A stretch of DNA of 64,000 nt from Tubulanus polymorphus (GCF_964204645.1 NC_134026.1:13204050-13268049); one strand, 5' to 3'; positions 13,789 through 64,000 are shown, counted from the stretch's first letter. The notes: generated by a model not told the origin, from the sequence alone. A program made the numbers and translations.

Positions 13789-14129
13789 AGTAATAGGGGT
13801 AATGGGCTTTCAGATCAAAGGTCGAACGGTCGAGCTCATAAAAATGAAAAACATGAAAATAATAACAATTTCTACTTGAATTAGTCGCGAAACTCATAAA
13901 AAATGAAAAATAATTCTCACACACTCGAATTTATTTTTCATTTTTACTCGCTAGAAAAAAGTGTGAGTAAAGTGTGAGTGAAATAAATTCGAGCGCGCGA
14001 GAATTATTTTTCATTTTTTATGAGTTTCACTCCTAATTCAAGTAGAAATTGTTATTATTTTCATGTTTTTCATTTTTTATGAACTCGACCATTCAACCTT
14101 TAACCTGAAAGCCCATTACCCCTATTACT
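13789..14129. repeat. Terminal palindrome (hairpin) 1 of a Maverick-like element
   Basis: AGTAATAGGGGTAATGGGCTTTC...GAAAGCCCATTACCCCTATTACT with about 150-bp imperfect arms; marks the switch to very AT-rich DNA. Confidence 0.85.
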
Positions 14130-14249
14130 CTTAAAATATTCATATACATGAATAAAATATATATGAATAACATATAAATTGATAGATTATTCAATATAAA
14201 AGTGTGAGTGAAATGATTCATATTTAAAACATTGAATATTTATATTTGA

Positions 14250-14900
14250 ATGAGTTTTAATAAAAATTTTGTTATAAAAATGAAGAAAGAAGAAGAAGAA
14301 CCCAACTTTAAAATCGAAATCAATGAAACCAATAAATCATTTTCACAGTTTTACATTAAAAATTATATTTCAGCAACAAATTTAGTGTCCGCAAGGTATT
14401 ATAGAATTGAAAATATTACTGTAATTAATCAAATATTATCAAATGAAACATATTTGATTACTGAACTAGTAGATACTTTTGATAATGGTGTTAAAAATCC
14501 TAAAGTATTCAATACAGTTTTAAATTTTAAAGGAACTTTAGATGAAAACATAATTAATATTCTTAAAACTCCTTTCAATGAAAGAAATGATGATATAATA
14601 CTTTCAAAAGATTACAATGATTTGATTAACTTAAGAATTGAAAAAAGACAATTATATTATTTCAATTTTGATAATAAAAAAATTATCTATAATGAAAATT
14701 CATCAAATATTGGAATTCAATGTGAATTAGATAATGAAAAATCATTTAAAGATATTGCAGTTCAATGCAATTTAGATGATGAATTTAGAAAATTCAATCC
14801 TAATGAAAAAGTGCATTGTTATTGCGGAGGTAAATACTTAAAATCACATAAATCAAAGCATTATGAAACAATTAAACATAAAAACTGGCGTAAAGAGTAA
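14250..14900 (+). CDS. Hypothetical viral protein with a C-terminal C2H2-like zinc finger
   Basis: 216-aa ORF ending VHCYCGGKYLKSHKSKHYETIKH. Confidence 0.6.
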   Translation: MSFNKNFVIKMKKEEEEPNFKIEINETNKSFSQFYIKNYISATNLVSARYYRIENITVINQILSNETYLITELVDTFDNGVKNPKVFNTVLNFKGTLDENIINILKTPFNERNDDIILSKDYNDLINLRIEKRQLYYFNFDNKKIIYNENSSNIGIQCELDNEKSFKDIAVQCNLDDEFRKFNPNEKVHCYCGGKYLKSHKSKHYETIKHKNWRKE

Positions 14901-14953
14901 CAATTCTACATTATAATTATTGAATTGAGTTAAATGATTTAAATATCTAAATA

Positions 14954-17780
14954 GACTGTTAAAATGATAAATTGTTTGACAGTTGAAATGATAAATTGTT
15001 TGACAGTTGAAATGATAAATTGTTTGACAGTTGAAATGATAAGACAGTTGAAATGTTAAATTGTTTGACTGTTGAAATGATGAATTGTTTGACAGTTGAA
15101 ATGATACATTGTTTGACAGTTGAAATGATAAATTGTTTGACAGTTGAAATGATAAATTGTTTGACAGTTGAAATGATAAATTGTTTGACAGTTGAAATGA
15201 TAAATTGTTTGACAGTTTAAATGATAAATTGTTTGACAGTCGAAATGATAAATTGTTTGACAGTCGAAATGATAAATTGTTTGACAGTTGAAATGATAAA
15301 TTGTTTGACAGTTGAAATGATAAATTGTTTGACAGTTGAAATGATAAATTGTTTGACTGTTGAAATGTTAAATTGTTTGACTGTTGAAATGATAAATTGT
15401 TTGACAGTTGAAATGATAAATTGTTTGACAGTTGAAATGATAAATTGTTTGACAGCTGAAATGATAAATTGTTTGACTGTTGAAATGTTGAATTGTTTGA
15501 CTGTTGAAATGATAAATTGTTTGACAGTTGAAATGATAAATTGTTTGACAGTTGAAATGATAAATTGTTTGGCAGTTGAAATGATAAGACAGCTGAAATG
15601 ATAAATTGTTTGACAGTTGAAATGATAAATTGTTTGACAGTTGAAATGATAAGACAGTTGAAATGTTAAATTGTTTGACTGTTGAAATGATAAATTGTTT
15701 GACAGTTGAAATGATAAATTGTTTGACAGTTGAAATGATAAATTGTTTGACAGTTTAAATGATAAATTGTTTGACAGTTTAAATGATAAATTGTTTGACA
15801 GTTTAAATGATAAATTGTTTGACAGTTGAAATGATAAATTGTTTGACAGTTGAAATGATAAATTGTTTGACAGTTGAAATGATAAATTGTTTGACAGTTG
15901 AAATGATAAATTGTTTGACGGTTTAAATGATAAATTGTTTGACAGTTGAAATGATAAATTGTTTGACAGTTGAAATGATAAGACAGTTGAAATGTTAAAT
16001 TGTTTGACTGTTGAAATGATAAATTGTTTGACAGTTGAAATGATAAATTGTTTGACAGTTGAAATGATAAATTGTTTGACAGTTGAAATGATAAATTGTT
16101 TGACAGTTTAAATGATAAATTGTTTGACAGTTTAAATGATAAATTGTTTGACAGTTGAAATGATAAATTGTTTGACAGTTGAAATGATAAATTGTTTGGC
16201 AGTTGAAATGATAAGACAGCTGAAATGATAAATTGTTTGACAGTTGAAATGATAAATTGTTTGACAGTTGAAATGATAAGACAGCTGAAATGATAAATTG
16301 TTTGACTGTTGAAATGTTAAATTGTTTGACTGTTGAAATGATAAATTGTTTGACAGTTGAAATGATAAATTGTTTGACAGTCGAAATGATAAATTGTTTG
16401 ACAGTTGAAATGATAAATTGTTTGACTGTTGAAATGTTAAATTGTTTGACTGTTGAAATGATAAATTGTTTGACAGTTGAAATGATAAATTGTTTGACAG
16501 TTGAAATGATAAATTGTTTGACAGCTGAAATGATAAATTGTTTGACTGTTGAAATGTTGAATTGTTTGACTGTTGAAATGATAAATTGTTTGACAGTTGA
16601 AATGATAAATTGTTTGACAGTTGAAATGATAAATTGTTTGACAGTCGAAATGATAAATTGTTTGACGGTTTAAATGATAAATTGTTTGACAGTTGAAATG
16701 ATAAATTGTTTGACAGTTGAAATGATAAGACAGTTGAAATGTTAAATTGTTTGACTGTTGAAATGATAAATTGTTTGACAGTTGAAATGATAAATTGTTT
16801 GACAGTTGAAATGATAAATTGTTTGACAGTTTAAATGATAAATTGTTTGACAGTTTAAATGATAAATTGTTTGACAGTTGAAATGATAAATTGTTTGACA
16901 GTTGAAATGATAAATTGTTTGGCAGTTGAAATGATAAGACAGCTGAAATGATAAATTGTTTGACAGTTGAAATGATAAATTGTTTGACAGTTGAAATGAT
17001 AAGACAGCTGAAATGATAAATTGTTTGACTGTTGAAATGTTAAATTGTTTGACTGTTGAAATGATAAATTGTTTGACAGTTGAAATGATAAATTGTTTGA
17101 CAGGTGAAATGATAAATTGTTTGACAGCTGAAATGATAAATTGTTTGACTGTTGAAATGTTAAATTGTTTGACTGTTGAAATGATAAATTGTTTGACAGT
17201 TGAAATGATAAATTGTTTGACAGTTGAAATGATAAATTGTTTGACAGTCGAAATGATAAATTGTTTGACAGTTTAAATGATAAATTGTTTGACAGTTGAA
17301 ATGATAAATTGTTTGAAAGTTGAAATGATAAATTGTTTGACAGTTGAAATGATAAATTGTTTGGCAGTTGAAATGATAAGACAGCTGAAATGATAAATTG
17401 TTTGACAGTTGAAATGATAAATTGTTTGACAGTTGAAATGATAAATTGTTTGGCAGTTGAAATGATAAGACAGCTGAAATGATAAATTGTTTGACAGTTG
17501 AAATGATAAATTGTTTGACAGTTGAAATGATAAATTGTTTGACAGCTGAAATGATAAATTGTTTGACTGTTGAAATGTTAAATTGTTTGTTGAAATGATA
17601 AATTGTTTGACAGTTGAAATGATAAATTGTTTGACAGTTGAAATGATAAATTGTTTGACAGCTGAAATGATAAATTGTTTGACTGTTGAAATGTTAAATT
17701 GTTTGACTGTTGAAATGATAAATTGTATGACAGTTGAAATGATAAATTGTTTGACAGTTGAAATGATAAATGGTTTGACA
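14954..17780 (+). repeat. 24-bp minisatellite array (ATGATAAATTGTTTGACAGTTGAA), roughly 120 units
   Basis: Contiguous tandem units with a recurring 17-bp variant lacking ATTGTTT and a few recurring point variants. Confidence 0.98.
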
Positions 17781-18296
17781 ATAGAAATCAAAAAGATTTA
17801 AATAAAAAAACAATAAGTTACTTTATCTAATACTAACTTATTTAACTTATTGTTTTTTTATTTAAATCTTTTTGATTTCTATTCGCACTATTGGTTAACA
17901 AGAATTGACTAGAATTCAAATAGATTTAACAAGAAATTCAATAACTTAGTTAGTATCACTCTTGTATTATTTCATTGTTTCTCTTATTGAATAAGCCAAC
18001 TAACTAATATCACTCTTGTATTATCCTAGTCAAATGTAAAGAATTTACAATATCATACTTGAATGAATTAAAACATAAATTACTTCTGTTACTTCATTTT
18101 CAGAAATAAAGCATAATATGTATTTAATACCATTAATACGTATTTGATACCATCAATAGGTATTTGATACGTATTTAATACGTATTTAATACATTGATAC
18201 CTCAACCCTCCTTTTTTAACGTAAATATAATTTACTCATTTTCATACATTTCAACCAATATATTTTATATTTTCAGCTAATTAAACAGTTTATTTC

Positions 18297-18602
18297 TTAT
18301 TTTGATTCATATAATTCTTCATAAAGTTCGTGAAGATACATGTGATTCCTTAATGATTTTTTATTTTTATATCTTTTATTGCATATTTCACAGCATTTAA
18401 TATTATTCAATCTATCTGAAATATAATTCATATTTTCTATTAATTCAGTGTATCTAATTTTACAGCAATCATAGAATTCTAACAACTGTTTTATAGTATA
18501 AACTGAGAATGAAAATAAACCTGAAATCATAATAATTGATTTAATATTGTGTTGATTTTTATATATTAGATGTAATATTTCTAATACCTTATTTTCACTC
18601 AT
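18297..18602 (-). CDS. Small protein with a hydrophobic segment and a C2H2 zinc finger
   Basis: MSENKV...IIMISGLFSFSVY...CEICNKRYKNKKSLRNHMYLH; start context TAAAATG. Confidence 0.55.
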   Translation of the reverse strand: MSENKVLEILHLIYKNQHNIKSIIMISGLFSFSVYTIKQLLEFYDCCKIRYTELIENMNYISDRLNNIKCCEICNKRYKNKKSLRNHMYLHELYEELYESK

Positions 18603-18648
18603 TTTATAGTCAAAATATATAGAATAAATTAAATTACAAGATGCTGTT

Positions 18649-18867
18649 TTAATCCTCCAAATCATTTAAATCATTAACTTTTTTATTGTTATACTTTCTG
18701 TGATTGTTTCCATTTAACTTCTTTAATTTCTTGCTCAATTTTATATTTTCATTAATCAAATCCTTACTGACATTTTCATAATAAAAGAAAAGCGCAGCCA
18801 ATAAAAATCCACCTGCTACTAAATAATGTTTCAAATCACTTTTCCCAGTTGGGATGAAACCATCCAT
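18649..18867 (-). CDS. Small predicted membrane protein
   Basis: YLVAGGFLLAALFFYY segment; preceded by T-run plus TAAATG like the other element genes. Confidence 0.55.
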   Translation of the reverse strand: MDGFIPTGKSDLKHYLVAGGFLLAALFFYYENVSKDLINENIKLSKKLKKLNGNNHRKYNNKKVNDLNDLED

Positions 18868-18989
18868 TTATTTAAGAGAAAAATTAAACAGTTTATAAAA
18901 TATTTGCTAGTTTTTCATTAAATATTTTATCATCATTTTTAAAATATTAAACTTTTAAATGATTAAATCAAATAACAATTAAATTTACG

Positions 18990-20808
18990 GCCAAACAATT
19001 TATCATTTCAACTGTCAAACAATTTATCATTTCAACTGTCAAACAATTTATCATTTCAACTGTCAAACAATTTATCATTTCAACTGTCAAACAATTTATC
19101 ATTTCAGCTGTCTTATCATTTCAACTGCCAAACAATTTATCATTTCAACTGTCAAACAATTTATCATTTCAACTGTCAAACAATTTATCATTTCAACTGT
19201 CAAACAATTTATCATTCATACTGCCAAACAATTTATCATTTATACTGCCAAACAATTTATCATTTCGACTGTCAAACAATTTATCATTTCAACTGTCAAA
19301 CAATTTATCATTTCAACTGTCAAACAATTTATCATTTCAACTGTCAAACAATTTATCATTTCAACTGTCAAACAATTTATCATTTCAACTGTCAAACAAT
19401 TTATCATTTCAACTGTCAAACAATTTATCATTTCAACAGTCAAACAATTTAACATTTCAACAGTCAAACAATTTATCATTTCAGCTGTCTTATCATTTCA
19501 ACTGTCAAACAATTTATCATTTCAACTGTCAAACAATTTATCATTTCAACTGTCAAACAATTTAACATTTCAACAGTCAAACAATTTATCATTTCAGCTG
19601 TCTTATCATTTCAACTGTCAAACAATTTATCATTTCAACTGTCAAACAATTTATCATTTCAACTGTCAAACAATTTATCATTTCAACTGTCAAACAATTT
19701 ATCATTTAAACTGTCAAACAGTTTATCATTTCGACTGTCAAACAATTTATCATTTCAACTGTCAAACAATTTATCATTTCAACAGTCAAACAATTTAACA
19801 TTTCAACAGTCAAACAATTTAACATTTCAACAGTCAAACAATTTATCATTTCAGCTGTCTTATCATTTCAACTGTCAAACAATTTATCATTTCAACTGTC
19901 AAACAATTTATCATTTCAGCTGTCTTATCATTTCAACTGCCAAACAATTTATCATTTCAACTGTCAAACAATTTATCATTTCAACTGTCAAACAATTTAT
20001 CATTTCAACTGTCAAACAATTTATCATTTAAACTGTCAAACAATTTATCATTTCGACTGTCAAACAATTTATCATTTAAACTGTCAAGCAATTTATCATT
20101 TCAACTGTCAAACAATTTATCATTTCAACTGTCAAACAATTTATCATTTCAACTGTCAAACAATTTATCATTTCAACTGTCAAACAATTTATCATTTCAA
20201 CTGTCAAACAATTTATCATTTCAACAGTCAAACAATTTAACATTTCAACTGTCTTATCATTTCAACTGTCAAACAATTTATCATTTCAACTGTCAAACAA
20301 TTTATCATTTCAGCTGTCTTATCATTTCAACTGCCAAACAATTTATCATTTCAACTGTCAAACAATTTATCATTTCAACTGTCAAACAATTTATCATTTC
20401 AACTGTCAAACAATTTATCATTTATACTGCCAAACAATTTATCATTTCGACTGTCAAACAATTTATCATTTCGACTGTCAAACAATTTATCATTTAAACT
20501 GTCAAACAATTTATCATTTCAACTGTCAAACAATTTATCATTTCAACTGTCAAACAATTTATCATTTCAACTGTCAAACAATTTATCATTTCAACTGTCA
20601 AACAATTTATCATTTCAACTGTCAAACAATTTATCATTTCAACTGTCAAACAATTTATCATTTCAACTGTCAAACAATTTATCATTTCAACAGTCAAACA
20701 ATTTAACATTTCAACTGTCTTATCATTTCAACTGTCAAACAATTTATCATTTCAACTGTCAAACAATTTATCATTTCAACTGTCAAACAATTTATCATTT
20801 TAACAGTC
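18990..20808 (-). repeat. Second 24-bp minisatellite array, inverted, roughly 75-80 units
   Basis: Reverse complement of the 14954-17780 unit, with the same variants. Confidence 0.98.
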
Positions 20809-20979
20809 TATTAGATATTTAAATCATTTAACTCAATTCAATAATTATAATGTAGAATTGTTACGCTTTACGCCAGTTTTTATGTTTAATTGTTTCATAA
20901 TGCTTTGATTTATGTGATTATAAGTATCTGGACAATTTAATTGCTCCGCATAGATAGACAAAAGTAGTGAGATATTCAA

Positions 20980-21384
20980 TTAATTAAAAAAAATTATTTT
21001 TTTGCTTTTTTCTAAAATATTAGTCCATTTTTTTATTATCAATTTTGGAATTTCAGAAGTATTTTCATTTTTGATAGCAGTTGTTTCAGAATTATAAATA
21101 TCATGAATTTTATTTGATTTCTTATACCAATTACGCCCTATCAAAATGAATACCATTACAAATCCAACTGTAAAATATAAATATTTATCAAATATTCTAT
21201 TACCAGAAGGAGTAGAAATAACAATATTTTCACTATTATTAAAATTTTCATTATTTATTCCTTCTTTTTTAGCTTTTTTAAATTCTTGTGATTTAATTCC
21301 TAATTGTCGAGACCATTCATTTTGTTTCGGACTTCTCAGGCTTTTCTTCACAGTTAATTCCTTCACTTCTTCCACTTCGCTCAT
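20980..21384 (-). CDS. Small membrane protein (homologous to 38029-38397 and 47511-47858)
   Basis: Basic RSxKQxEWSRQLG motif plus one TM segment, shared by three copies. Confidence 0.65.
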   Translation of the reverse strand: MSEVEEVKELTVKKSLRSPKQNEWSRQLGIKSQEFKKAKKEGINNENFNNSENIVISTPSGNRIFDKYLYFTVGFVMVFILIGRNWYKKSNKIHDIYNSETTAIKNENTSEIPKLIIKKWTNILEKSKKIIFFN

Positions 21385-21921
21385 TTATTGTAGAAAAATT
21401 TTTACTTTCAATATTTGAAAATGTTATAACTCCAGTTGATAATAACGTCATAAATCCACCTAATTGAAATGATAAATATCCAATCCATTTATTTAATTCA
21501 GTCATGACTAAATAATCATTTTTTAAATCGGAATATAATCTTTTTTCATCTTGAATTGGCAGCATATAATTACATAATTTACTATAACCTTTTACTACAT
21601 TTTCTGATATCGCGTCATTATTCTAGCTGTTCTCGCGGTTTCATAAATCTTAAATAATCTAATAATTTCATCTGATTTCATTGTATCTAATTCATTATAA
21701 GTTAAATTTTTACCGATAAAATTTTTACATTTTCCAGATGCTATTAATATTTCTAATTGATGTTTACAATAAAGATAATATTCATAATTATTATTTGTTG
21801 TAACATTATTTAAAGCACCATCATCTGGAGTTAATTTTGTTTCTGTTATTCCAAAATCATCTAAAGATTTTTCAATTGGAACATCACCATTTTTAGATTT
21901 TATTTTCTTTTCACCTCCCAT
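21317..21921 (-). pseudogene. Conserved hypothetical protein, frameshifted (intact at 47791-48396)
   Basis: Two ORF pieces together equal the 201-aa ORF of copy C. Confidence 0.75.
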
Positions 21922-22072
21922 TTATATAACAAAAAAATTAGTTGTGATGTTGCAACTAGAATTTAACTAGAATGTAAATAGAATTCAACTAGATTAACAA
22001 GCTAGTTGAAATATTGTTGTTTTTATTTATTTATTGTTAGATCTAGTTGATTTTTGTTCCAACTACCAATAA

Positions 22073-23128
22073 CTAGAATTCAACTAGAATGGAGCTAAAA
22101 TATACTAAAATAAATTGAATTACTAAAATTATTATTAATTCTTCGTTCATAAAATGTTTTCTAATATCTGGCCATTGATCTATCATTCTCATTCCTTGAC
22201 AAAATATTTTATTTGCTATTCCTTCGATAGTTATTTCTACTTTTGCTATTTCAGGATTATAATAATTATCAACCTTTATTGCGCCATTAGAATATGTTGC
22301 AATGGTAAAAAATATTAATATACCTTTAATAGATCTTCTTGGGAAGTTAATATTCTCATTAATTATTTCATCATTTGCATTAATAGTTACAGTTTTAAAT
22401 TTATCAATATAATCATATAATAATGAAAATCCTTGATTGTATTGAGTTTGAATTGTGCTAGCAATATTTTCATTAGTTACTGTGTAATATTCTAAACATA
22501 TATTCGATAATTTATAACCCATATCTTTAACAACGCTAGATAATACAATTTCATTTACAGGAGCAAATGTTACCTCAAATATAATATCTTCTTGAATTAC
22601 ATATTTATATAAAGGTGCATTATTATTTATCAATTCAAAGTCTAATGGAATTTTATATTTGCTTCCATAAATCTTTTTAATCAAATTATCTGCGGCACGA
22701 GTTACTATTGCGTCATTAGCTCCTGATCTTAATTTATTATGGTTTTCCGATTGAATGCCTTGAAATATCATATTATTTCTATTTTCTTTAGTTAACCATA
22801 AATCTTTATAATGCATAAATAAATTATAATCATCTAATGACAAAACTGTTTCTGGACCAATCTTTATTGTTAATTTTTTAATCAAATATCTTCCAACATT
22901 ATCAACAACATAATTATTATTATTACCGATTACTTTTATATCGGCTGATAAATGAATACTATTTGGAACATAAAAAGTATTTTGTGTTAATCTAGGAATT
23001 CTAACATATAAAGTTTCATCAGGATTAATATTAGAAGGGTTATGAGTGATTATATGATGTGATCTTTCTGCTTTAATAGCATTAGATATTCTATGATTCT
23101 TAGAAGGATTGATATAACTCCCACTCAT
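22073..23128 (-). pseudogene. Putative major capsid protein (double jelly-roll), C-terminally truncated
   Basis: Beta-strand-rich, about 415 aa in fuller copies, highly conserved among copies, adjacent to integrase and ATPase in copy C. Homology stops near 22140. The fold is inferred, not computed. Confidence 0.6.
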
Positions 23129-23148
23129 TTATTTAACAAAAAAATTAA

Positions 23149-24549
23149 TCATTTATTTTTGTTGGTAAACATTTTCATGTTTACCAACCCAAAAATAATA
23201 GCACTTACAACTGTAATTAAAAATAAAATAATATGTTCAGCAGCAAAGTTAATAATATTTCCTGCTGATTTCAATATAAAACCAACAATTGATGCAATAA
23301 CTCCGGGCAATGCTGCAGCAGATTTTTTAGATAGTTCCCATAAATATTTTGCTAATTTCTTTAAACCATCTTTAACTTTATCTTGTATAGAATCTGGGGG
23401 TTTATCTGGTTTATTGGGAGTAGGAGTAGATTTCAGTGAATTTGATATAGCTAAACCGATTGTTGTGAATACCATAGTTACAGATGTTAGAATTGAAATA
23501 ATTGTTATACCTTCTAATTTAAATAATAATTTTATTCTATCTTAATGATATTTCAGAATTTGGTTTCATTTGATATCTTTTAAAAACATCTTTTAATCTT
23601 TTAAAATTATTACCATATTCTTTTAATAATATATCTCTTTCTTTTTTCTGTAATTCTAAATTATCTTTTAAATTATTAATTTCTTTTTCTAAACGTAATT
23701 CTTTTTGCCTATATTCTATTTCATCAATTACTTGTCGTTCTAAATCAGACTTTAATTGTTCTATTTCCTAATTTTTATCAGTTAATTCTTTTTCTAAAGT
23801 TCTAATTTTAAAATCTCATACTTTTATCGTGCGCAAATTTATCAGCTTTATTTCTTATATTAATAATTTCTCTAATTGCTTTATCAGAAAATATATTTAA
23901 ATCTTCTAATTGTTGATCTGTTGCATCAAGTAATCCATTCGGTAAAAGTTTTTCAGTTTGAACTTCGTTTGATTTAATTTTACTAGTTTTGGAAGTTTTA
24001 TTCTGTTCAGAAGTTGTTTCTGTTTTTGAATTATTTTTGATTGTTTCAAATAATTCATTAATTCTTTGTTTAAATACTCTTTCATTTTTAATACTTTCTT
24101 CTTGTGTTACATTTTCTATTTCATTACTATTTCTTATTCTTTTAATTCTAGATAGGTCTAACTTAAGCAAAGTTGATTCTTTTAATATTTTGTTTTGTTT
24201 TTTATAAGAGATATCAATATAATAATCACCGGTCAAATGATAATAATATTCACCATCTAAAAATTCTAAATTTTGTGCTAAAATTCTGGCGTCTCTAAAA
24301 TTTATATTATATTCAGATCTTTCAAATATATGTTGTAATCTACGCGCTTGGTTTATATTTTCTAAATCTTGTCTTATTAAATATGGATTTTCATTTTCAG
24401 GATTTATTCTCGATCTAGATCTTCTATCAAATGCATCTGTTGATGGGGCTTTATAACCACTATCTGTTAAATTAGAATTATATGCTGTTTCATCATTATT
24501 ATCAATATTAGTTTCAGCATCATTATAATCATCTTCATTCTTCTTCCAT
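23149..24549 (-). pseudogene. Acidic-N-terminus coiled-coil protein with C-terminal membrane segments
   Basis: Fragments homologous to 34648-36118 and 51731-53188. Confidence 0.7.
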
Positions 24550-31055: not shown

Positions 31056-31072
31056 GAAAATATGTAAAATAA

Positions 31073-50436: not shown

Positions 50437-50466
50437 TTATATATCCTTAATTTTAACTTTATATTT

Positions 50467-51710: not shown

Positions 51711-51730
51711 TTATTTAACAAAAAAATTAT

Positions 51731-53188: not shown

Positions 53189-53204
53189 TTATATAATAAA
53201 AAAA

Positions 53205-54563
53205 TTAAAATTTAAAATATAATATTCCTCCTATAACAATTCCTATACAAGTTAAAGCTAATTTAGTATTTTCATGGGATTTATTATCATCATTTTGTTT
53301 AATTATATCATGTTGAATATTATCAGTTTTAATATTTTCTGTAGTATTGTAATCTTTTATTTTAGAATCATTATTTAATTTAATATTCTTAGTTTTAGTT
53401 TCTGTTGATTGAATGTGTTTTTTATTTTTTCACCTTCCATTAATTTTGGAGCAGTAATTATCTTTTTATTTATATCATTTAATCCAAATGAATTATTTAT
53501 TGTTGCAGTTTTAATTTGATTATTGTAACCAATTATGTTTCCCATCTTTTATACTAAATCATAAGAAATAATTAATAGATTAGGGCCTATACAATAATTC
53601 AATCTAATATGTGATTTATCTAAATAATTTTGATATCTTACAATGTTTTCTGGAATCGATCTATTTTTATCATTATGAATGGAATCTTCAAGTAATACTT
53701 TGAATTGATTTTGTGTATCAAATGATGTATTTAAATTTCCAATTATTGGGGATCTTGTTTCAACCTGTGATCCTAGAATACATATCAAATAAGTTCTAAA
53801 TAGATTGATTTATTCTTTGTATACCTGATTTTGTAAAACCTTCATTATTTTCTAAAATGAAACCCAACCATTATTGTTTTCTTGTTTTAAATTATCATAA
53901 AATTTCGGTAATTTATTGAAATTTAATGTTTCTAAATCCTATAGATTCTATAGATATTATAAGGCTATTAGATGGTAAGGGAAGTGCACAGTATTCTGCA
54001 ATCTTTTTAGGGCAAGGAAGTGATCTTATTGTTCCAATTTTTGTTCTAAAATCAGAATCATTTATATCTGTATTAAATTCATTACAAATTTTATAAAACT
54101 TTGATAAATTAATATTATTATCTAATTCTTTAAAATATCTAGATCCTGGTAAAGCGCACTCTAATTCATTTAATATTATTCTGATTTGAAAGTATGTATG
54201 AAATCTAAATAAACTTTGAATTAATTTATATTTAGAATTATTCAAATGATCATTCCAACTAATTCCACAACCTGTTGTTGCACAATAAACGGTAAAATTT
54301 GATTGGTTCTGCCAATACTTCATATTAGATTTTAATAACCATTGTTTTTCATCTTTCAATTTTTTAAAATTAATTAAATATACATGAAATATATTTTCCA
54401 TCTTTGCATTAAAATTATTAGTTTCAGTAACATAAATTTCTAAATTAGTTAATGAATCTAAAACTTCATTTCTATATGTAATATCTTTATTAAAATCTAT
54501 TGCTGGAATATTATATTTAATTGATTTATTATATTGGAAAGCTTTTGGAAAACTATCTACCAT
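53205..54563 (-). pseudogene. Conserved hypothetical structural-block protein
   Basis: Pieces homologous to 25385-26569, with frameshifts. Confidence 0.72.
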
Positions 54564-54579
54564 TTATATAATAAATAAA

Positions 54580-55014
54580 TTAATAATTTATTAATTCTTT
54601 TAATAATTTATCTTGTTCTTCAACTGTTATATGGCCATTTAAACTTATTATATAATCGAGTGTATTCTTTAATTTATTGATTTCTTTTATATTAGTTTTA
54701 ATTTTTTCTTTATTACTTTTTATATTTAATTTTGAACTTATACCAGTTAAAACACTTGAACTTAATCCTAATACACCAATTGATATAGCTAAAGGTGTTA
54801 ATGGACTGAATATTGCTAGAAATGTTATTACAGAACTAATTGTAACCGAACCATTAATAATAAGATAATATATAATTTTACTTTTTAGATATTTTTTCTT
54901 TTTAACTTTTAAATCACTTTCAAATTCTAATATTTGTTTTTCTTAATATATTTTTAATTTTGTTTTATTTATATCATGAGGAATAATATCAATATTATCA
55001 ACTTTATCTTCCAT
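54580..55014 (-). CDS. Two-TM membrane protein copy (possibly disrupted)
   Basis: Nucleotide homology to 32880-33314 on the minus strand. Confidence 0.6.
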
Positions 55015-55409
55015 TTATCGAAAAAAAATTACTAATTAGTAAATTTATATGCTAAAAATATAACAATAACAGTTTCGCCTAAAATCCAAATTATTTCATA
55101 TTTCTGTTGTTCTTTACTTGGGGTATAATAATCTGATATTGTATAGGAGGAATATATTTTTGTTTTTCCAAATAATCAATAGTTAAATTAGATAAAGTAA
55201 CTGCTAATGTTAATTTTAAAATATCAAATCTATCAACATTAACACTTCCCATTTTGAATACTTTTTTAATACCATTGAATAACCAACAGTTCCAACTGAT
55301 AGTAAGGCGCCATTATATAATCCAGTTATTATCCACTTATTATCACTCATTAATTAATCAAAAAAATTATCATCAAAATAATCATCAAAATATTTAGTTA
55401 TCTTAGTTC

Positions 55410-55793
55410 TGTAACCGGCTGGTTGTTGTATCGGCAGGCTGGCTGGGGAACTAGCATTTACACCAGCGGTACATGATTCCATCCATCAGGAACAACAAGG
55501 CAGTTAAACCTTATATGTACAATCTTTATTGCATCCCGGAATGAGAATGATTATCATAGCTTTACATAGTCTTTATATACAGAATCATGAGTATAATGTG
55601 AGAACTAGGTGTCAGACAAGTTGTAGACATCAGGACGCACAAACAAACACCTAGTGACATGTTTGAGAGACATTAATTAATTATCGATGAGCACTGACTA
55701 TAGCTAATCATCGTGAAAACATGTTGAATAATGTCACATGTTGATTACGACCTTACGAAGCACATATTGACACTATAGTCATAAGTTATATTA

Positions 55794-55845
<52 letters not shown>

Positions 55846-57988
55846 AATATGTAGTAGAGCTATGAAATGTTATGAACTGTTCGATATGACATTGTAGATC
55901 TATATGATTATGAAATATGCAAATTATATCAGGGTGACAGATGCCCCCTTGTCCAATTAAATTTTGTCCTCAAAATTTGCGGAAAACGCAGATACTATAA
56001 GTTCATCAAAACTCCTTCCATCGCGAAAACATGAAAGATTGACTTTCACCGCGCAAAAATGTGCAAACGCTGGACAGTAACATCCGGATTATCAGTCATT
56101 CACGAAAGAGTCACATGTTGTTGTCGTTATATACGGACGATGCGATGATACGTTAACTGTAATTTTGAATGATCTGCAAACGATCCCCGAATTCTGGTTG
56201 GTTCTGCGACGAACCGAAGTAGCGACGTGTTGTGTAGTTATAGCGTCCCGAAGATCAGTTGGTGATGCAAGTTGCAAGTAGTACGCATTTCTCTGTTTTG
56301 AAGATCTTTCGATTACTGACTGGAAATAACTTCGTGACACAATGATAGTAACATGCAACATTTGACATCAGAGCAGAGTTCAGGCAATGACACAACACAA
56401 ATACAGTTACCATTGTCAACCAAAAGGAAAAAATTATCATCATCCAAAATAAGTGGTCAGAAGTAAATAAAGAATAACCATAGTAATTGAGCAAAGATGA
56501 CACCACCAGCATAACTGAACTGTTTTAACACCTATCATCGCAGTCTCAATTAATCCACGTTATATTATATCATTGATAAATTCATACCGTACCGTACACT
56601 GTTATGTCTCGTATTAGATTTACAATGACGTTATTTGCGTGTTTTCTACGAAAGATTTCATGCACTCTACTTAAAATGACTAGTATATATTAATTGAACG
56701 TATGAACTATCCGATCTTTGAACCGTTCAGGGCGTTAATAAACTGAAAATATACGTACGAGTAATAAGCTGATCAATTCATCGCTGATATCCATATGATA
56801 TCCTGGAAAGCTTAAGAAAACCTACTGTAGCTACTACTGAGTTTCGAAGAAATAGATTTTAAACGAGAAGCGTACTGACTTTGTGTGCCAGGAGGTGTTT
56901 CATACCAAGGCCATGCAGGGGGAGCGAACCGCCCAAATAAAACATAGTATTCTAAGACTCCCTGGTCGTTGAAACGTGTTGATACGGCTCGAGCGGCAGT
57001 AGGTATAATTTTTTAGAGCTCGGTTTCGGTGGGAGGCCTTTCATTTTCCAAGATGACATGATATATACCCCATACATGTTCAAGACTTTCTCCGTAATCA
57101 CTTACTTCAAACCAATCTCGTTTTGATGCCCGGTACCATGGACTGTCATGGTAATATTTTACGAATAGCACATTATTTTGAAATTTGGTAGCAACAACCG
57201 TTTTTCCTGTAGGGCATGGACATAATGCTCGACGATTTCCCGTCCGAATAGCCTCTTCGATAGCGACATTACTTGAATCTGAACTACTCTTAACGCTATC
57301 CTGATTCGTATGATCTTGGTGAGTTTTCGATCGAGCTGAACAATATACACTATTTACATTCTCATTATTTGATGAGTCTTCATTAGACATCTGATTATCA
57401 AATTCCTATGGCTGACAACAAGTTACCATAATGTGTTGTATCAACCAAAACAGCAGCGATTTCGGCGATCAGCACGGTCTTGTCACAAGTGTAGTTGAAT
57501 GCGATCTTCTATTTTGTGGTATGTTTCAGTCACAATCCGTATATCAGCAGCTTCATCTGTACTTGTGTAAGTCACGAGGACTTAAATTTGGGTTCTCCAC
57601 TATCTGTAACCGGCTGGTTGTTGTATCGGCAGGCTGGCTGGGGAACTAGCATTTACACCAGCGGTACAGGATTCCATCCATCAGGAACAACAAGGCAGTT
57701 AAACCTTATATGTACAATGTTTATTGCATCCCGGAATGAGAATGATTATCATAGCTTTACATAGTCTTTATATACAGAATCATGAGTATAATGTGAGAAC
57801 TAGGTGTCAGACAAGTTGTAGACATCAGGACGCACAAACAAACACCTAGTGACATGTTTGAGAGACATTAATTAATTATCGATGAGCACTGACTATAGCT
57901 AATTATCGTGAAAACATGTTGAATAATGTCACATGTTGATTACGACCTTACGAAGCACATATTGACACTATAGTCATAAGTTATATTA

Positions 57989-58043
<55 letters not shown>

Positions 58044-58099
58044 AATATGTAGTAGAGCTATGAAATGTTATGAAATATGCAAATTATATCAGGGTGACA
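55410..58099 (-). mobile_element. Non-autonomous LTR retroelement (about 2.7 kb) nested in Maverick copy C
   Basis: Direct repeats 55410-55939 and 57605-58099 bounded by TGT...ACA, each with a (TTA)n tract. On the minus strand, a PBS-like TAGTGGAGAA follows one LTR and purine tract GGACAAGGGGG precedes the other. No gag/pol and no clean TSD. Confidence 0.7.
57013..57390 (-). CDS. Hypothetical protein inside the LTR element
   Basis: 125-aa ATG-initiated ORF about 200 bp downstream of the putative PBS; no recognised domain. Confidence 0.4.
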   Translation of the reverse strand: MSNEDSSNNENVNSVYCSARSKTHQDHTNQDSVKSSSDSSNVAIEEAIRTGNRRALCPCPTGKTVVATKFQNNVLFVKYYHDSPWYRASKRDWFEVSDYGESLEHVWGIYHVILENERPPTETEL

Positions 58100-58405
58100 G
58101 ATTAATTCAACATTTATTTCATTAATAGTTTCATTTGTATATATTTCAATTATTATTTTTTTAATATCATCGATGATAAAATCTTTATCTAATTCATAAA
58201 ATCTTAAAGATTCTCTAATTAAATTAGTAATATTTTCTACATTTAAAGTTTCTTTATCTATTGTTTTTTCATACTCAAATGTTGTTTCATTAGAAAATGC
58301 AATATTTTTGATATGTGTAATTACATCATCAATGTTAAATTTCATTTCTTTCTCACGTTTAAAATCAAACCCAAAACATATACTCGGTCCAACAGTTATA
58401 TTCAT
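58058..58405 (-). CDS. Hypothetical protein (homologue of 31845-32147)
   Basis: Near-identical; its end runs into the LTR insertion. Confidence 0.65.
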   Translation of the reverse strand: MNITVGPSICFGFDFKREKEMKFNIDDVITHIKNIAFSNETTFEYEKTIDKETLNVENITNLIRESLRFYELDKDFIIDDIKKIIIEIYTNETINEINVELICHPDIICIFHNIS

Positions 58406-58421
58406 TTATATAGTGAAAAAA

Positions 58422-59182
58422 TTACTCTTTACGTCTTATAACTAGTTCATAAATTACAGGAAAGTTATTCAAATCAATTAAATAACCATTATGATTTCTT
58501 ATTTCTAATTTAAAATTATTGAAATGTGGAATACAAGGTTTAAAATCACATTCAGCTAAATTATAATTTATTTGCGTTCCAAATTGTTTAACATTTTTTA
58601 ATGGTAAAATATTTGATATACTAGAATTATAAATTGTATCTTTAGTTGCTTCAAATGTTTTTGTTGGGTCAATTAAATTGCAATAAATATAAAAATGTGT
58701 AAAAGGTATTAAGTTTGATCTACCTTCTGCGTATGCTGTAACAATATCTGGGTTAATTCCTAACAGTTTACCTAAAGGTTTTCTTACTGTAAATTTAAAT
58801 TGGCTAATTCATTAGCTAACCTAATCTTTATTTTATTAGAACTATCACTTTTTAAAATTCTAATACTAAATCCGGAATCACTTCCTAATTTAGCTCGAGC
58901 TTTTCTATTAATTTCTTGTGCTAATGTATCTAAATTATATAATCCTGGTTTTAAATATATAAAAAACCATTTATTCCTTTTTTTGCAAAAGATTGAAAAA
59001 ATTAAATGTTCTAGACTTTTATCCGATATATTGTAAAATGAGTTACATAAACTTATATTTACTAATTTTAAATCAACACAATTCTTAAATTCTCTATCTA
59101 ATTGTATTAGTAAATTATGTGATTTATAATTTGTTAGTTTTCTAGAATCAACAAATATTCTGTATTCTTTTAATTCTACCAT
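58422..59182 (-). pseudogene. Putative minor capsid (penton) protein, frameshifted
   Basis: Homologous to 31073-31827. Confidence 0.65.
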
Positions 59183-59230
59183 TATTTATAACATAAAAAA
59201 ATTAATTTTAATAAAATTTTTCGTAAATAA

Positions 59231-59680
59231 ATGGATGAGAAGATACCATGCAAAATTTGTGGTGAACTTCTAAGAAAAAGTAATATGGCTCGACATATGA
59301 AAAAACATGATGAAAATTATAAACCCCCTAAACTAAACTGTCCAAAATGTAATAAATTATTCTCAAGAAATTATGTTAAAAAACATTCAGAGAAGTGTAA
59401 AATTAATGGCGCAACGGCTAATGTTGATAGTATTGAAAGTAATAGTAATTCTGTTGAAGTTGAACCTGAAATTATTTGGAAAAGACCTTTCTTATTCTAT
59501 GATAAGGATAATATAAAAGATCATTTCTGTAAGCCTTGTCGAATAAAATATAGCCCTGAAAATATAGAAGATTGGGAGAATCATCAATTTCGTAAAGCAC
59601 ATATAGATAAAATTTCTAATAAATTTGAAGCAGAATTCAATGAAAGAAAAAATAGTTTATTAGAAAAAAATAAAATATGA
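59231..59680 (+). CDS. C2H2 zinc-finger protein
   Basis: CKICGELLRKSNMARHMKKH, CPKC..H..C and CKPC..H..H; T-run plus TAAATG start. Confidence 0.75.
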   Translation: MDEKIPCKICGELLRKSNMARHMKKHDENYKPPKLNCPKCNKLFSRNYVKKHSEKCKINGATANVDSIESNSNSVEVEPEIIWKRPFLFYDKDNIKDHFCKPCRIKYSPENIEDWENHQFRKAHIDKISNKFEAEFNERKNSLLEKNKI

Positions 59681-60272
59681 GAAAACGTTACCAGATAATA
59701 AAGAAACAGTTGAAAAGTTAGAAAAACAATATAATGAATTAACAAGAAAAACATATTATTGTAAATATTGTAAATTGATTATTACAACAAGTAATTCAAA
59801 TCTACATAATAGAACAATAAAACATAAAGAAAACGTAAGAAAATACCAAGAGCTTAATGAAGATCTATTACAAAGAAATTATAAACAAAAATGCCCACAA
59901 TGTCATTATGCGACCTTAAGACAAGAGGGAACTATGTTATTCTGTAATGAATGTGGATGGCAAAAGAATTTATGGGGTGAAGAAAAAACTAGAGATTTTC
60001 TCATAGAACCAAAATTAAATTATCTAGATGAAATTTTTAAAATATTTACTATAGAAGATCATACACCAGAATATATGCAATGGCTTGAAAAAATGAAAAT
60101 AATAGAAAATAAAAATGGTGAAATAACTAAAAAAGATATTATAAAAACAATTATTCCATCAACATTTAACACAAAACAAAAGAAAATGTATCTATATTTA
60201 TTATTTAACGATTATTATGAAAAACCTAAATTAACAGAAGAAGATATGGAAAATATAAAAAAAAATATTTAA
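59677..60272 (+). CDS. Zinc-finger / zinc-ribbon protein
   Basis: YYCKYCK..H..KH and CPQC..CNECGW; probable ATG near 59677, upstream of the listed ORF. Confidence 0.55.
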
Positions 60273-60282
60273 ACAAATATTA

Positions 60283-60561
60283 ATGTATCATTTGGAAAAT
60301 AGAATAACAGATTCAATTAATTATGAATTCTTTTTAAATAAGATTGTAAATTATTTAAACATCGATATTATAATTCCATTTGACGAATTAACAAACAAAA
60401 AGAAACAAAGAGAGCGATATGAAATGTGGTACAAGATAGAACTTTATTTAAATGAGAAAAATGAAATGGAAGAACCTAAACAAATTATACAAGAACAATT
60501 AAATGAAAATGAAGAAGCCAATAGTGATTTCGAGTATGATGATATTGATTTTATGTTTTAA
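60283..60561 (+). CDS. Small acidic hypothetical protein
   Basis: 92-aa ORF converging on the pPolB stop. Confidence 0.45.
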   Translation: MYHLENRITDSINYEFFLNKIVNYLNIDIIIPFDELTNKKKQRERYEMWYKIELYLNEKNEMEEPKQIIQEQLNENEEANSDFEYDDIDFMF

Positions 60562-60685
60562 TGGCCATAAGGTAATGTTTTTATACCATCATCTAAAATA
60601 TGCCTTTTATCATCAAATGGATTCAAACTAGTTTTTTCAACTTCATTAATGTACATCTCGTGATCTTCTGATCTTAAACAATTCA
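60558..60685 (-). pseudogene. polB: Extreme C-terminus of copy C pPolB, cut by the next element end
   Basis: NCLRSEDHEMYINEVEKTSLNPFDDKRHILDDGIKTLPYGH, the canonical Maverick pPolB tail. Confidence 0.88.
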
Positions 60686-61089
60686 AGTAATAGGGGTAAT
60701 GGGCTTTCAGATCAAAGGTCGAAAGGTCGAGCTCATTAAAAAACATATATTAAAAGTAATTAAAAACTATAATATATTTTCATAACCGTGTGTATTTTAT
60801 ATTAAAACTAAATATTTATTCTAAGATATCAATAATCTAAAAAGCATATTGTATTAAATCAATTGGTCGCTCCGCTTCGCTACCGCTCCGCTCCGCGACC
60901 AATTGATTTATTTACAATACACAAATTCATATAATCAAATATATTCAAATGATAATAATTATTCTATTGTTCAACTGAAATACACACGGTTATGAAAATA
61001 TATTATAGTTTTTAATTACTTTTAATATATGTTTTTTAATGAACTCGACCATTCAACCTTTAACCCGAAAGCCCATTACCCCTATTACT
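60686..61089. repeat. Terminal palindrome (hairpin) 3, left end of element D
   Basis: Reverse complement of 42100-42508; starts AGTAAT directly against pPolB coding sequence. Confidence 0.88.
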
Positions 61090-61169
61090 CTTAGAATATT
61101 CATATAAATGAATAACATTTAAATCATTGAACTTCTAAAATCAATTTTAATAGAAAATTTGATATTAAA

Positions 61170-64000
61170 ATGGAAGCAAATAAATACTACTGCCCAACAT
61201 GTAATATCGATATAGATAAGTCTCAAAAAGCAAGACACAATAAAACTATAACACATTTAGAGAATAAATTGAAACTAGAATATGAAGATGATATATTAGA
61301 AACTAAATTAGAAGAATTAAAGAATGAAAAAGAAACATACAAATGTGATACATGTAATCAATCATTCAGTGATAAAAGATATTATAATGAGCATTTAAAA
61401 TCTATAAGTCATATTAAAAATAAGAATAATGATATTTTAGGTGAAGATTATTTTGATAATGATAACGATAAGAAACAGAAGACAATTAAAAGCATAAAAA
61501 ATAAATTAAACAATAAAAGACCATACATGGAAGATGTAAGAAATTATATTAATTCATTAGATAATAAAAAAGATATAGAGATAACCGAAGCATTTAAAAG
61601 TGATATTGGTCCAGCAGCTATCGAGTTTAAATTTCATAAAGGAAAAACATTAGAAGAAAATAAAAAACATTTAGAAAATATGAAAAATATTATAAAAATA
61701 ATTACTGATGTTGAATATCCTAAAATTAGTATATCAGTTAAAGTAAAGTTTATAAAATCTGAAGATAAACCAATATATAATATAAATTCTCATTCACAAC
61801 ATATTATATCTAAACAACATATAGATGATAAATTAGATAAATGTTATAATGAAGTAAAAACTAAAATAGAAGAGAAATATTTTGAAGGATCTGGTTTAAT
61901 ATTTGATGAGATAATATTTATAACTTTACATGTTTATAACACAAAATATAATAAGTTAACTAAATCAAAACCAATTGATGAAAATAATTTATCATATTAT
62001 AAAGATGATAGTATAAATGGAACAAGTTATATTAAACTACCATTTAAAACTAATGCTGTAATAAATGTACAAAATTTTGATAATAAATGTTTTCTATGGG
62101 CTATAATAAGTTGTTTACATCCTGCAACTTATAATATTTGTAGATTAACTCATTATAAACCATTTAAAAATAATTATAAGATAGATAAGTATCCTGTTAG
62201 AATTAAAAATATTCCAAAAATAGAAAGAGATAATAATCTTAAAATAAATGATTTAATCAAATTACCAAATAAAAAAGGTAACAATATAAAACATTATACA
62301 TTAGAACCTTTATACCTATCAAAAGATTATGATTCAAATAATGTTATAGATATACTATATTATGAAAATCATTATATGTGGATTAAACAAATCGATTTAT
62401 TTTTCAAATCAGAAAATGATCACCATAAAATATATCTTTGTAGAAAATGTTTACATAGATTCAGTAATGAAAGTACGTTATTAAATCATAAACAATTATG
62501 TGAAAATCATGATTATTGTAAATTAGTTTTACCAAATGAAAAAGATAAAATATTAGAATTCAAAAAATATGATTACAAAAATAAAGTACCATTTGTAATA
62601 TATGGAGATTTTGAATCATTAAATAAAGAATTAACAGATAAAGATAGAAAAGAAATATATTATAAAAGAAAGAAATTAAATTCTAATGAAAGTGATTATT
62701 CAGAAGAACCACTAAAAACAAATACTATTAAAAAGATTCATCAATCAGCTGCAGCTTTCGGGTTATATATTAAATCTAATTATCCAGAACTAATTAAAAG
62801 TGAATATTATAATTATAGAAATGAAAATGTTATTAATCATTTTTGTGACTTATTAATTGAATATGAAATAAGATTTAGTAAATTATTGAATACAAATATA
62901 GAAATTATAATGACAGAAGAAGATAAAGAAGAATTTGAGTTTGCAGATAAATGTTATTATTGTAATCAAGTATTCTATTCATCTGATAAAAAGGTAAGAG
63001 ATCATGATCATTTGAATGGAAAGTTTAGAGGCGCGGCGCATGAGAATTGTAACTTACAAGCTAAGAAAATCAATTTTGTTCCAGTAATATTTCATAATTT
63101 ATCAGGATATGATGCACATTTATTTATCAAACAGTTATGCTATAAAATAGAAGAAATCAATAATGAAATAGAAATATTAAATTCAAATAGATCAAAAGAT
63201 AAAATACCAACTTATAAATTTAGAATGTTAGCTAGAACATCTGAGAATTATATATCATTCCAATTTGGTTGTCTAAGATTTATAGATTCATATAGATTTT
63301 TAAATAGTTCATTAAATAACTTATCAAAATCATTAGTTGATGATGAATTAAAGATATTAAAAGAATGTTACCCAAATAATGATGATTTTAAATTAATGAG
63401 ATATAAAGGAGCAATTCCATATTCTTTCTATAAAATTCATAATGATTTTAACATAACTGAATTATTGAAAGAACAATTTTATGATGAATTAAAAAATGAA
63501 TATGTTAAAGATGAAGTCTATAATAGAACATTGAATATTTGGAATCATTTCAAAATAGAAAATCATGGGCAATTAGTAGATTTATATTTAAAATCAGATG
63601 TATTATTATTAACCGATATATTCGAAAGGTTTAGAGATGTAAACCTAAAATATTTCAATATTGATCCTTGTCATTGTTATTCATCGCCAGGATTAACATG
63701 GGATTGTGGATTAAAATTTACAGATATAAAAATGGATTTGTTAATCTTTATGGTTGGGCAATGATGGAACCACAACCTTATGGGATGTTTGAAATAACTG
63801 AAGTTTTACAAATTGATAAATTTGATTGGAAGAAAAGAATCCTAGATATTGCAGATGATTCAGATATTGGTTACTTCTTCGTTGTAGATTTAGAATACCC
63901 TGAAAATATTAAATTCAAATCTAGAAATCTAGCATATTGTCCCGAACATAAAATTGTTAAACATGAAGAATTATCAAATTATCAAAAAAGAATTAAACCC
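61170..64000 (+). pseudogene. polB: pPolB of element D: N-terminal zinc fingers, endonuclease VII-like and 3'-5' exonuclease domains; internal deletion; runs off the window
   Basis: C2H2 fingers, NVQNFDNKCFLWAI, FVIYGDFES, CYYC..VRDHDHLNGKFRGAAHENCN, FHNLSGYDAH, FIDSYRF, YLKSDV, SSPGLTW. Near 63742 it jumps from DLL to NLYGWAM. Confidence 0.93.

Follow-up and report, generated by a model that had tools for sequence, protein, structure and literature searches.

The AT-rich part of a 64,000-nucleotide stretch of the Tubulanus polymorphus genome (GCF_964204645.1, NC_134026.1:13204050-13268049; 'the window' throughout) consists of at least four broken, partly nested copies, A to D, of one virus of the Polinton/Maverick class. 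Judged by their sequence, nearly all genes of this element open on the features of poxvirus-type late promoters, and their transcription may fall to a pox-like viral machinery that is missing from the element's own gene set; the element would then depend on a helper virus that has not been seen. We place this reading first, with confidence that stays below even. An earlier prediction, made from the DNA alone, had put AT content far above that of the flanking DNA, and the window indeed divides at 13,789: guanine-cytosine (GC) content is 36-46% leftward (1-13.7 kb) versus 20-26% in the block to the right (0.20-0.26 across 14-30 kb, 31-40 kb, 47-55 kb and 58-64 kb), within which lie GC-richer pieces at ~30.2-30.7 kb, 40-47.4 kb and 55.4-58.1 kb.

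Inspecting the 80 bases before gene starts revealed a nearly invariant signal, TAA-TTTTTTT-6 nt-(A/T)ATAAATG, whose ATG is the start codon. Between 20900 and 64000, ATAAATG was found at 21 of 42 first-ATG open reading frames (ORFs) of at least 100 amino acids (aa), compared to 60 of all 1711 ATGs (3.5%; binomial P 7e-20). Conversely, 21 of 60 ATAAATG sites open an ORF of this size, as against 70 of 1651 other ATGs (Fisher P 3e-13, odds ratio 12). Counted from the 26 listed starts, TAAATG precedes 14 of 18 distinct genes. T occupies positions 7-13 upstream of TAAAT, with the 10th upstream base being T in 18 of 21 starts, and the AT-rich part contains 23 instances of the composite T5-N3-10-TAAATG, 16 of which lie before ORFs of at least 70 aa, versus a single one in the 13.8-kb flank.

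In the published description of vaccinia and mpox late promoters, TAAAT runs into a G that belongs to the start codon, and a conserved T lies 10 nt upstream among T residues (PMC11980589). The window genes show the same TAAAT joined to the G of their ATG, and their T-run has its centre 10 nt upstream; since the spacing of the T-run also agrees, the match is one of architecture and not of a mere hexamer. Specificity seems to reside in the T-run, as T5NT is depleted about threefold on the sense strand inside ORFs (5 vs 18.6 +/- 5.1 in the relative L002, introduced below; 6 vs 18.5 +/- 4.5 in the window), whereas TAAAT is not. In L002, 13 of 14 ORFs have an ATAAATG start (P 1.5e-15). The pox-like late promoters of the original prediction are borne out by these counts and come out stronger than had been claimed. 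TAAATG starts also recur in more distant capsid lineages at 36-38% GC, for example at all six ORFs (6/6) in L043. In the literature we found no mention of Polinton genes with pox-late-type promoters; the main texts of PMC11131425, PMC8502044 and PMC11296320 do not use the word 'promoter', and their supplements could still bear on the point.

Under the helper reading, TAAATG would be the transcription start signal and a polymerase would initiate within TAAAT, as in poxvirus late transcription. This polymerase would be supplied by a cytoplasmic pox-like virus, as with mavirus and Cafeteria roenbergensis virus (CroV), and intact copies would stay silent until such a virus infects. Replication would rely on the element's own PolB, and its rve enzyme would integrate an open-ended duplex, with the palindrome, unfolded, forming the tip. 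Only 0-3 nt separate the signal from the ATG, so a host polymerase treating it as a TATA box would begin transcription within the coding sequence; family-wide, however, the capsid alignments set in at residues 2-6, with N-termini conserved from the ATG of TAAATG. Pfam scans covering every element ORF of 55 aa or more outside the tandem arrays returned no RNA polymerase, capping enzyme, TBP or TFIIB. Initiation within TAAAT by an outside polymerase fits best with conserved N-termini in an element with no RNA polymerase among its scanned ORFs.

Several points weigh against helper dependence. The 64-kb window holds no helper-virus genes—the original prediction had likewise seen no helper—and we know of no pox-like virus from ribbon worms. 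The element encodes a PolB and an integrase itself and is allied by gene linkage to animal Polintons, which are usually regarded as autonomous. PolB and the two end-proximal ORFs are exceptions to the TAAATG rule (the penton candidate, with a variant of the motif, is another), and the start counts include paralogous copies and hence are not independent. Other lineages of the capsid family, with a different base composition (L010, L012, L026, L076, L042 and L040), carry conserved ATG-abutting motifs of their own within ~30 nt of the ATG, namely ATTTTCC..TATATAGA, TTTGAAC and GATTTAAAAATAATCT. An element-encoded factor that co-evolves with its own promoters explains such motifs at least as simply, and start-codon-abutting promoter-like signals may be a trait of the capsid family as a whole. 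Avoidance of poly(A) signals does not discriminate, as host transposon ORFs show no depletion either. Finally, the window has a gene with a weak likeness to VLTF3 (16.8 bits; 23.9 in L012; cut-off 25); VLTF3 also occurs in giant viruses without an RNA polymerase of their own, so that it need not imply cytoplasmic transcription.

Nearly as likely as helper dependence is an autonomous, adintovirus-like nuclear Polinton whose own zinc-finger and VLTF3-like factors (59231-60561) would recruit host RNA polymerase II at TAAATG, the likeness to pox promoters then stemming from a common origin of the transcription signals of Polintons and giant viruses. A polintovirus subgroup is reported to carry VLTF3 (PMC11131425), and the match at 60259-60561 (Pfam Pox_VLTF3, PF04947, E 0.0056) spans the same part of the profile, positions ~92-164 of 168, as the stronger one at L012:5070-5576. 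It nonetheless falls below the Pfam cut-off in a frameshifted gene, the pairwise comparison of the two is not significant, and ORF 59664-60272 had no homologue by word-based search and no protein-atlas score of 0.8 or more. That each capsid lineage owns an ATG-abutting motif speaks for this alternative, as do the linkage of the capsid to integrase, PolB and ATPase in relatives, two of them with ordinary inverted repeats, and the presence there of animal-virus-type accessory genes. Against it, a TATA-like element 2-7 nt before the ATG would have polymerase II start inside the ORF despite the conserved N-termini, and AATAAA occurs about once per 174 nt (56 in 9762 nt) on the sense strand of the genes.

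It is improbable that TAAATG is no promoter at all and merely the translation-start or poly(A)-signal context (AATAAA/TATAAA) of an ordinary nuclear Maverick. About half of the starts do contain AATAAA and the remainder TATAAA, and the T-run and hexamer directly follow the stop codon of the upstream gene. However, the hexamer stands in fixed register with the ATG in the 14 of 18 genes, a constraint that no poly(A) signal would require; the T-run is spaced as in the vaccinia late promoter; and the motif precedes both genes of a divergent pair (59185 / 59231), where there is no upstream gene, which makes a pure gene-end or poly(A) role unlikely.

Extending helper dependence beyond this window, ribbon worms and, judging by the relatives, other marine animals could hold a chromosomal reservoir of Polinton-class hyperparasites of an undiscovered pox-like cytoplasmic virus, a proposal that we regard as rather unlikely. 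In such a reservoir, promoters and hairpin-type ends would be modelled on the grammar of the helper, and intact elements would become active solely upon its arrival. Alternatively, the pox late promoter grammar may have been inherited from Polinton ancestors.

To resolve the copies, self-comparison was combined with a tblastn map built with P0002, a full-length PolB relative (1365 aa). DNA identity among A, B and C is 86-93%, and the PolB genes of D and A are 72-80% identical (both by self-comparison). The copies and their genes are laid out as follows.

~13789/20925-30210, genes on minus strand: copy A, without integrase, ATPase and capsid C-terminus; PolB truncated, rearranged and intein-bearing
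20925-27148, minus: virion-gene block of copy A, with the capsid gene (22073-23128; C-terminus deleted along with integrase and ATPase) and a 394-aa core gene (25385-26569)
27379-30010, minus: PolB fragment of copy A, P0002 residues 746-1277, with in-frame stops; C-terminus fused to a membrane-protein gene
27643-28692, minus: LAGLIDADG intein between YFD and TD(A/S) of the PolB active-site motif, with one in-frame TAA
30016-30210, plus: inverted PolB C-terminal fragment, P0002 residues 1259-1323
~30690-42508, plus: copy B, without integrase and ATPase; right part divergent, including the HNH gene
30690-37432, plus: gene part of copy B, including membrane-protein genes and a 485-aa-type gene
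30705-30947, plus: 114-aa-like ORF of copy B
33331-34632, plus: 442-aa-type gene of copy B, with one TAG
36149-37396, plus: capsid gene of copy B, with one TAA
37520-39907, minus: divergent right part of B; ORFs 38029-38397 and 38608-38991 are 71-72% identical to A and C
39239-39907, minus: HNH/endonuclease VII-type nuclease, copy B
46171-46497, plus: isolated homologue of the L002 114-aa gene, with ATAAATG start
47408-60686, minus: copy C, the sole copy with ATPase and integrase; split by a foreign insertion
47408-55407, minus: part 1 of copy C, with ATPase, integrase and capsid, then 485-type, 442-type and membrane-protein genes
48766-49308, minus: A32-type packaging ATPase, copy C
49309-50436, minus: rve integrase, copy C
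50467-51710, minus: capsid gene of copy C, broken into three frames
55408-58074: foreign insertion in copy C, GC 0.37, flanked by 469-bp direct repeats that are 98.7% identical
58075-60561: part 2 of copy C, with a 115-aa ORF and the penton candidate 58422-59185 on the minus strand and two divergent genes on the plus strand
59231-59680, plus: zinc-finger gene, copy C
59664-60561, plus: frameshifted gene, copy C, with a zinc ribbon and a weak VLTF3-like end
60564-60686, minus: PolB tail of copy C, its last 41 codons equalling P0002 residues 1299-1339 (75.6% identity)
60686-64000 and beyond: copy D, an end palindrome, then PolB (plus); runs past the window end
61170-64000, plus: PolB of copy D, P0002 residues 1-882 and 925-1013, 73-74% identity; break near 63743

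As the 123 bases outside the palindrome of D encode the PolB tail of copy C, D is nested inside C's PolB. All copies had been called damaged, and every one was found to be so. Of a backbone predicted for at least four copies, the capsid is present three times (A, B, C) and PolB as four pieces (A, A', the tail of C, and D), while integrase and ATPase occur once each, in C. Six in-frame breaks were checked, four of which are TAA; a variant genetic code as the source of the stops was ruled out, since the breaks overall mix TAA, TAG and TGA. The 2.7-kb insertion at 55408-58074 resembles a small non-autonomous long terminal repeat (LTR) element; a clear target-site duplication was not seen there, and copy B is continuous at the corresponding site.

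Three imperfect palindromes of 340-410 bp, with common outer arms and a ~125-bp inner flank reaching up to the first ATG, lie at element ends termed T1, T2 and T3.

13789-14130: T1 palindrome, at the host/element junction; outer end starts 5'-AGTAATAGGGG, as do the outer arms of the others
14131-14256: inner repeat part of T1, common to all three ends (like 42099-41998 and 61090-61172)
41998-42508: T2, inner repeat 41998-42099 and palindrome 42100-42508
60686-61169: T3, copy D, palindrome 60686-61089 and inner repeat
14250-14900, plus: first ORF inside T1, 216 aa, without family match and without TAAATG start
14954-17788: 24-bp tandem array, ~121 copies
17789-18991, minus: unique centre between inverted arrays, with ORF 18297-18665
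18297-18665, minus: ORF of 122 aa with a weak C2H2 zinc finger and a TAAATG start
18992-20808: 24-bp tandem array, inverted relative to the first, ~78 copies
40245-40707: 116-bp tandem repeat, 3.9 copies
40795-41352, minus: first ORF inside T2, 185 aa, without family match

As single-stranded DNA, T1 has a predicted fold of -133.3 kcal/mol (shuffles -29.8 +/- 4.1; z -25.6), and T3 reaches a z of -23.2. Family homology continues on one side only and stops exactly at each palindrome's outer base, beyond which lie host flank (T1), GC-richer DNA (T2) or the interrupted PolB of copy C (T3). Over 445 bp, T3 is an inverted match of T2 at 93% identity, with no hint of flip/flop inversion. The one-sided homology, the interruption of copy C's PolB by T3 and the inverted identity of T2 and T3 together argue that the palindromes are the tips of terminal repeats. 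Of the hairpin termini that had been predicted, the long palindromes at three true element ends therefore hold; that they form hairpins in vivo we infer from their sequence. Tandem repeats, predicted to adjoin the termini, lie 0.8-1.4 kb inside T1 and T2, and none was found at T3. The inverted homology of the 24-bp arrays extends into unique DNA, 14834-14950 equalling 20927-20811 at 98%. No copy has both of its ends, and hence both flanks of a target-site duplication, inside the window.

Might the palindromes instead be independent foldback transposons, akin to miniature inverted-repeat transposable elements (MITEs), that inserted into the elements? Each palindrome alone does have the 5'-AG...CT-3' ends of a small inverted-repeat element, and T1 has only its outer 57-77 bp in common with T2 and T3. 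We consider this to have little chance, however, as all three show the one-sided homology of ~125 bp to the first ATG that ends at the outer base; as the exterior of T3 is another copy's interrupted PolB frame, which makes palindrome plus PolB the inserted unit; and as T2 and T3 match in the manner expected of left and right terminal repeats.

The inner terminal repeat itself contains a TAAATG (61104-61110 at T3), which opens an ORF of a mere four codons ~66 nt before the PolB ATG; it is kept at T2 and T3 and mutated at T1. PolB might be transcribed from this TAAATG, in which case a short ORF would precede the gene.

With respect to class, the presence of PolB, rve integrase, A32 ATPase and capsid in many copies bears out the assignment to Polinton/Maverick-type endogenous viruses. 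The ATPase matched Pox_A32 (E 4e-13, 49.9 bits vs a cut-off of 22.8) and the integrase rve (E 4.9e-10, 40 bits vs 32.6), the latter with a Chromo domain match below cut-off (E 0.006). For capsid searches, the gene was read through its single stop as X, which returned 1409 representative relatives at E <= 0.001; a profile search of PDB sequences gave zero matches. An AlphaFold2 (AF2) model from 55 aligned sequences (predicted local distance difference test, pLDDT, 93.3) adopts a double jelly roll. Using Foldseek, this fold matched 107 viral models at E <= 0.001, the best being the giant-virus capsids of Paramecium bursaria chlorella virus 1 (PBCV-1) and grouper iridovirus (E 9e-17), compared to 4e-12 for mavirus and 6e-11 for Sputnik. 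In the BFVD ranking, an adintovirus capsid came 25th and virophage capsids 28th and 38th, beneath giant-virus capsids. As the fold is nearer to giant-virus than to virophage capsids, 'virophage-like' describes a possible lifestyle and not membership.

A single scan of metagenome contigs with the capsid alignment returned 80 loci (L-numbers); scans of IMG/VR with the capsid N-half, PolB P0002 and the capsid alignment returned zero relatives. The near-intact L002 (11.5 kb, 19.6% GC) has a capsid 77% identical to that of the window. Its order is a 114-aa gene, the penton candidate, small membrane proteins, a 442-aa gene, a 485-aa gene and the capsid, followed by integrase, ATPase, a 206-aa gene, a membrane protein, a deoxynucleoside kinase and a zinc-finger gene. 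Related contigs of 10-15 kb repeatedly have A32 ATPase, rve integrase and PolB near the capsid, a linkage by which the capsid family belongs with animal Polintons/Mavericks; two contigs of ~14.5 kb have ordinary terminal inverted repeats of ~100 bp. The deoxynucleoside kinase of L002 (L002:10340-10981) was matched at E 1.7e-31, and a Bcl-2 homologue lies at L010:2382-2858 (E 3.4e-18); both are accessory genes typical of animal DNA viruses.

The penton candidate (254 aa; L002:565-1329, window 31073-31821 on the plus and 58422-59185 on the minus strand) has no family match. The ~440-aa (442-type) gene, which adjoins the capsid gene (L002:2996-4324; window 25385-26569, 33331-34632 and 53378-54563), is a core gene kept across the capsid family, in at least 13 loci, with invariant Q, C, G-C-G, H and Y positions. 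Its AF2 model is mostly helical (pLDDT 62) and found no Foldseek BFVD match at E <= 0.001; the best VIA-align wide hit reached Z 4.8, on helices only. No protease, including the adenain type, was found in the Pfam scans of the element or in L002; gene content is variable in the published group 2 of Maverick-Polintons.

The element's PolB is, by its sequence, of the protein-primed type found in Polinton/Maverick (Polintoviricetes). The copy D protein has 1244 homologues, the nearest (66-73% identical) on short environmental contigs, while at 30-35% identity there are ant, beetle and coral proteins carrying PF03175 and PF02945. Embedded in PolB (residues ~595-643; ORF 61131-63764) is an endonuclease VII-like His-Me finger (CxxC...RDHDH...CN), also present in many relatives (PF02945). 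The HNH nuclease announced by the original prediction was recovered at 39239-39907 as HNH/endonuclease VII type (PHROG 1035, E 2.9e-16; Pfam HNH_4 at E 0.063 only). Taken together, the PolB finger, the separate HNH gene and the palindromic ends suggest a possible cutting of cruciforms or hairpins.

The copy A PolB reads ...EILYFD / SVTAV...(LAGLIDADG x2)...IAKN / TDAYILKIK where P0002 has MYFDTDSYILKIK, and relatives P0002 and P0005 carry an uninterrupted DTDS without intein. Pfam matches of the insert are below cut-off (Intein_splicing, E 7.4e-5; LAGLIDADG_3, E 0.0034), and among solved structures it comes closest to the archaeal polymerase intein PI-PkoII (E 2.7e-4). The mimivirus PolB intein at YGD/TDS is described as the 'pol-c' allele (PMC549080), and the copy A intein occupies the identical insertion site. 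A giant-virus-like pol-c intein, as predicted, thus exists in copy A only, and its likeness to giant viruses is limited to the insertion site; its sequence points to no specific tie to them.

Did the copies diverge before or after they died? The ratio of nonsynonymous to synonymous substitution rates (dN/dS) between A, B and C is 0.16-0.32 for the capsid N-half and 0.13-0.30 for one membrane-protein gene, implying that most divergence accrued while the genes were under purifying selection. Repeated integration by a virus in circulation accords with this better than the duplication of a single dead copy. From a DNA run carrying the same species label, 33,428 reads matched 44001-54900 at >=90% likeness and only 1,092 at >=99%. 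Read depth was 250-860 on the element against ~40 on 44001-44728, a flank that is perhaps itself repeated, so that the reads contain many divergent copies but give no exact number. In at least 12 places, the majority of reads differ from copy C of the window by small insertions or deletions.

That AT-richness and in-frame stops are the product of host-driven decay (deamination of silenced repeats) of ordinary Mavericks can be all but dismissed: CpG observed/expected ratios of 0.46-0.68 in the copies versus 1.18 in the flank (1-13788) and TAA at four of the six checked breaks would suit it, but near-intact L002 has 19.6% GC and a CpG ratio of 0.62, dN/dS is 0.13-0.32, and substitutions among family reads are roughly symmetric (C>T 156, T>C 142). 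AT-richness is therefore intrinsic to the lineage, given L002 and the symmetry of the substitutions, and the low CpG ratio may be so as well, as that of L002 is close to the window copies'.

Among known systems, the animal Mavericks/Polintons ('adintoviruses', PMC8502044) share with the element the protein-primed PolB, rve integrase, A32-type ATPase and double-jelly-roll capsid, multi-copy integration in an animal genome and, judged by T2 and T3 of separate copies, probably terminal inverted repeats, and homologues of VLTF3 and Bcl-2 have been reported in them. The window element differs in its GC content of 20-25%, the uniform pox-late-type promoter on its start codons, the foldback palindrome that makes up the outer 340-410 bp of its terminal repeat, and the absence of an adenain-type protease from the scanned ORFs. 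Earlier publications cover animal Polintons, the VLTF3 and Bcl-2 genes of some of them, and hyperparasites of poxviruses in insects; we found no published report of Polintons in nemerteans. To our knowledge, animal Polintons have yet to be settled as autonomous viruses, as transposons or as parasites of the virophage kind, and neither a virion nor a transcription mechanism has been described for them.

Mavirus has an rve integrase and a protein-primed PolB, integrates into the host genome and carries its helper's late promoter motif before every gene. As described, mavirus and the endogenous Cafeteria virophages (PMC10945749; bioRxiv 10.1101/068312) are the model for silent, helper-induced copies. 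The element differs in that its capsid fits giant-virus capsids better than that of mavirus, that its host is an animal and not a protist, that its motif is TAAATG instead of TCTA, and that its helper is unseen. Small polinton-like viruses in entomopoxvirus occlusion bodies have been proposed as poxvirus hyperparasites, with one relative integrated in a beetle genome; according to that account, some encode PolB, their capsids are highly divergent, two have no detectable integrase and two have tyrosine recombinases (PMC11296320). Set beside the window element by their description only, they offer a precedent for poxvirus hyperparasitism in animals, in an insect instead of a marine worm; promoters are not discussed in the main text of that paper.

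Poxvirus telomeres are imperfect terminal hairpin-forming palindromes followed by tandem repeat arrays, a layout that the palindromes and arrays at T1 and T2 resemble. Unlike poxviruses, the window element lacks poxvirus transcription and telomere-resolution genes, and its palindromes are seen only as integrated duplex DNA. If helper dependence were true, poxvirus hyperparasitism would extend from insects to marine invertebrates, which would point to an inducible, genome-encoded antiviral reserve in animals, the counterpart of mavirus defence in protists. If instead host polymerase and an element factor read the signal, a pox-type promoter grammar would exist outside giant viruses, which would bear on the proposed Polinton origin of the latter. 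A promoter that matches the poxvirus late type down to its spacing makes the helper question sharply testable.

The flank left of 13,789 contains host transposons. An intact-looking BEL/Pao LTR retrotransposon gag-pol lies at 133-5543 on the plus strand (Peptidase_A17, RVT_1, rve, DUF1759), and its pol is 99% identical to a protein named by NCBI as from the nemertean Tubulanus polymorphus. Further right is a PIF/Harbinger-type DDE transposase (DDE_Tnp_4, E 1.3e-36) with a Myb/SANT-like partner gene close by.

9215-10493, plus: Harbinger transposase (Pfam)
11545-12165, minus: Myb/SANT-like gene (Pfam)

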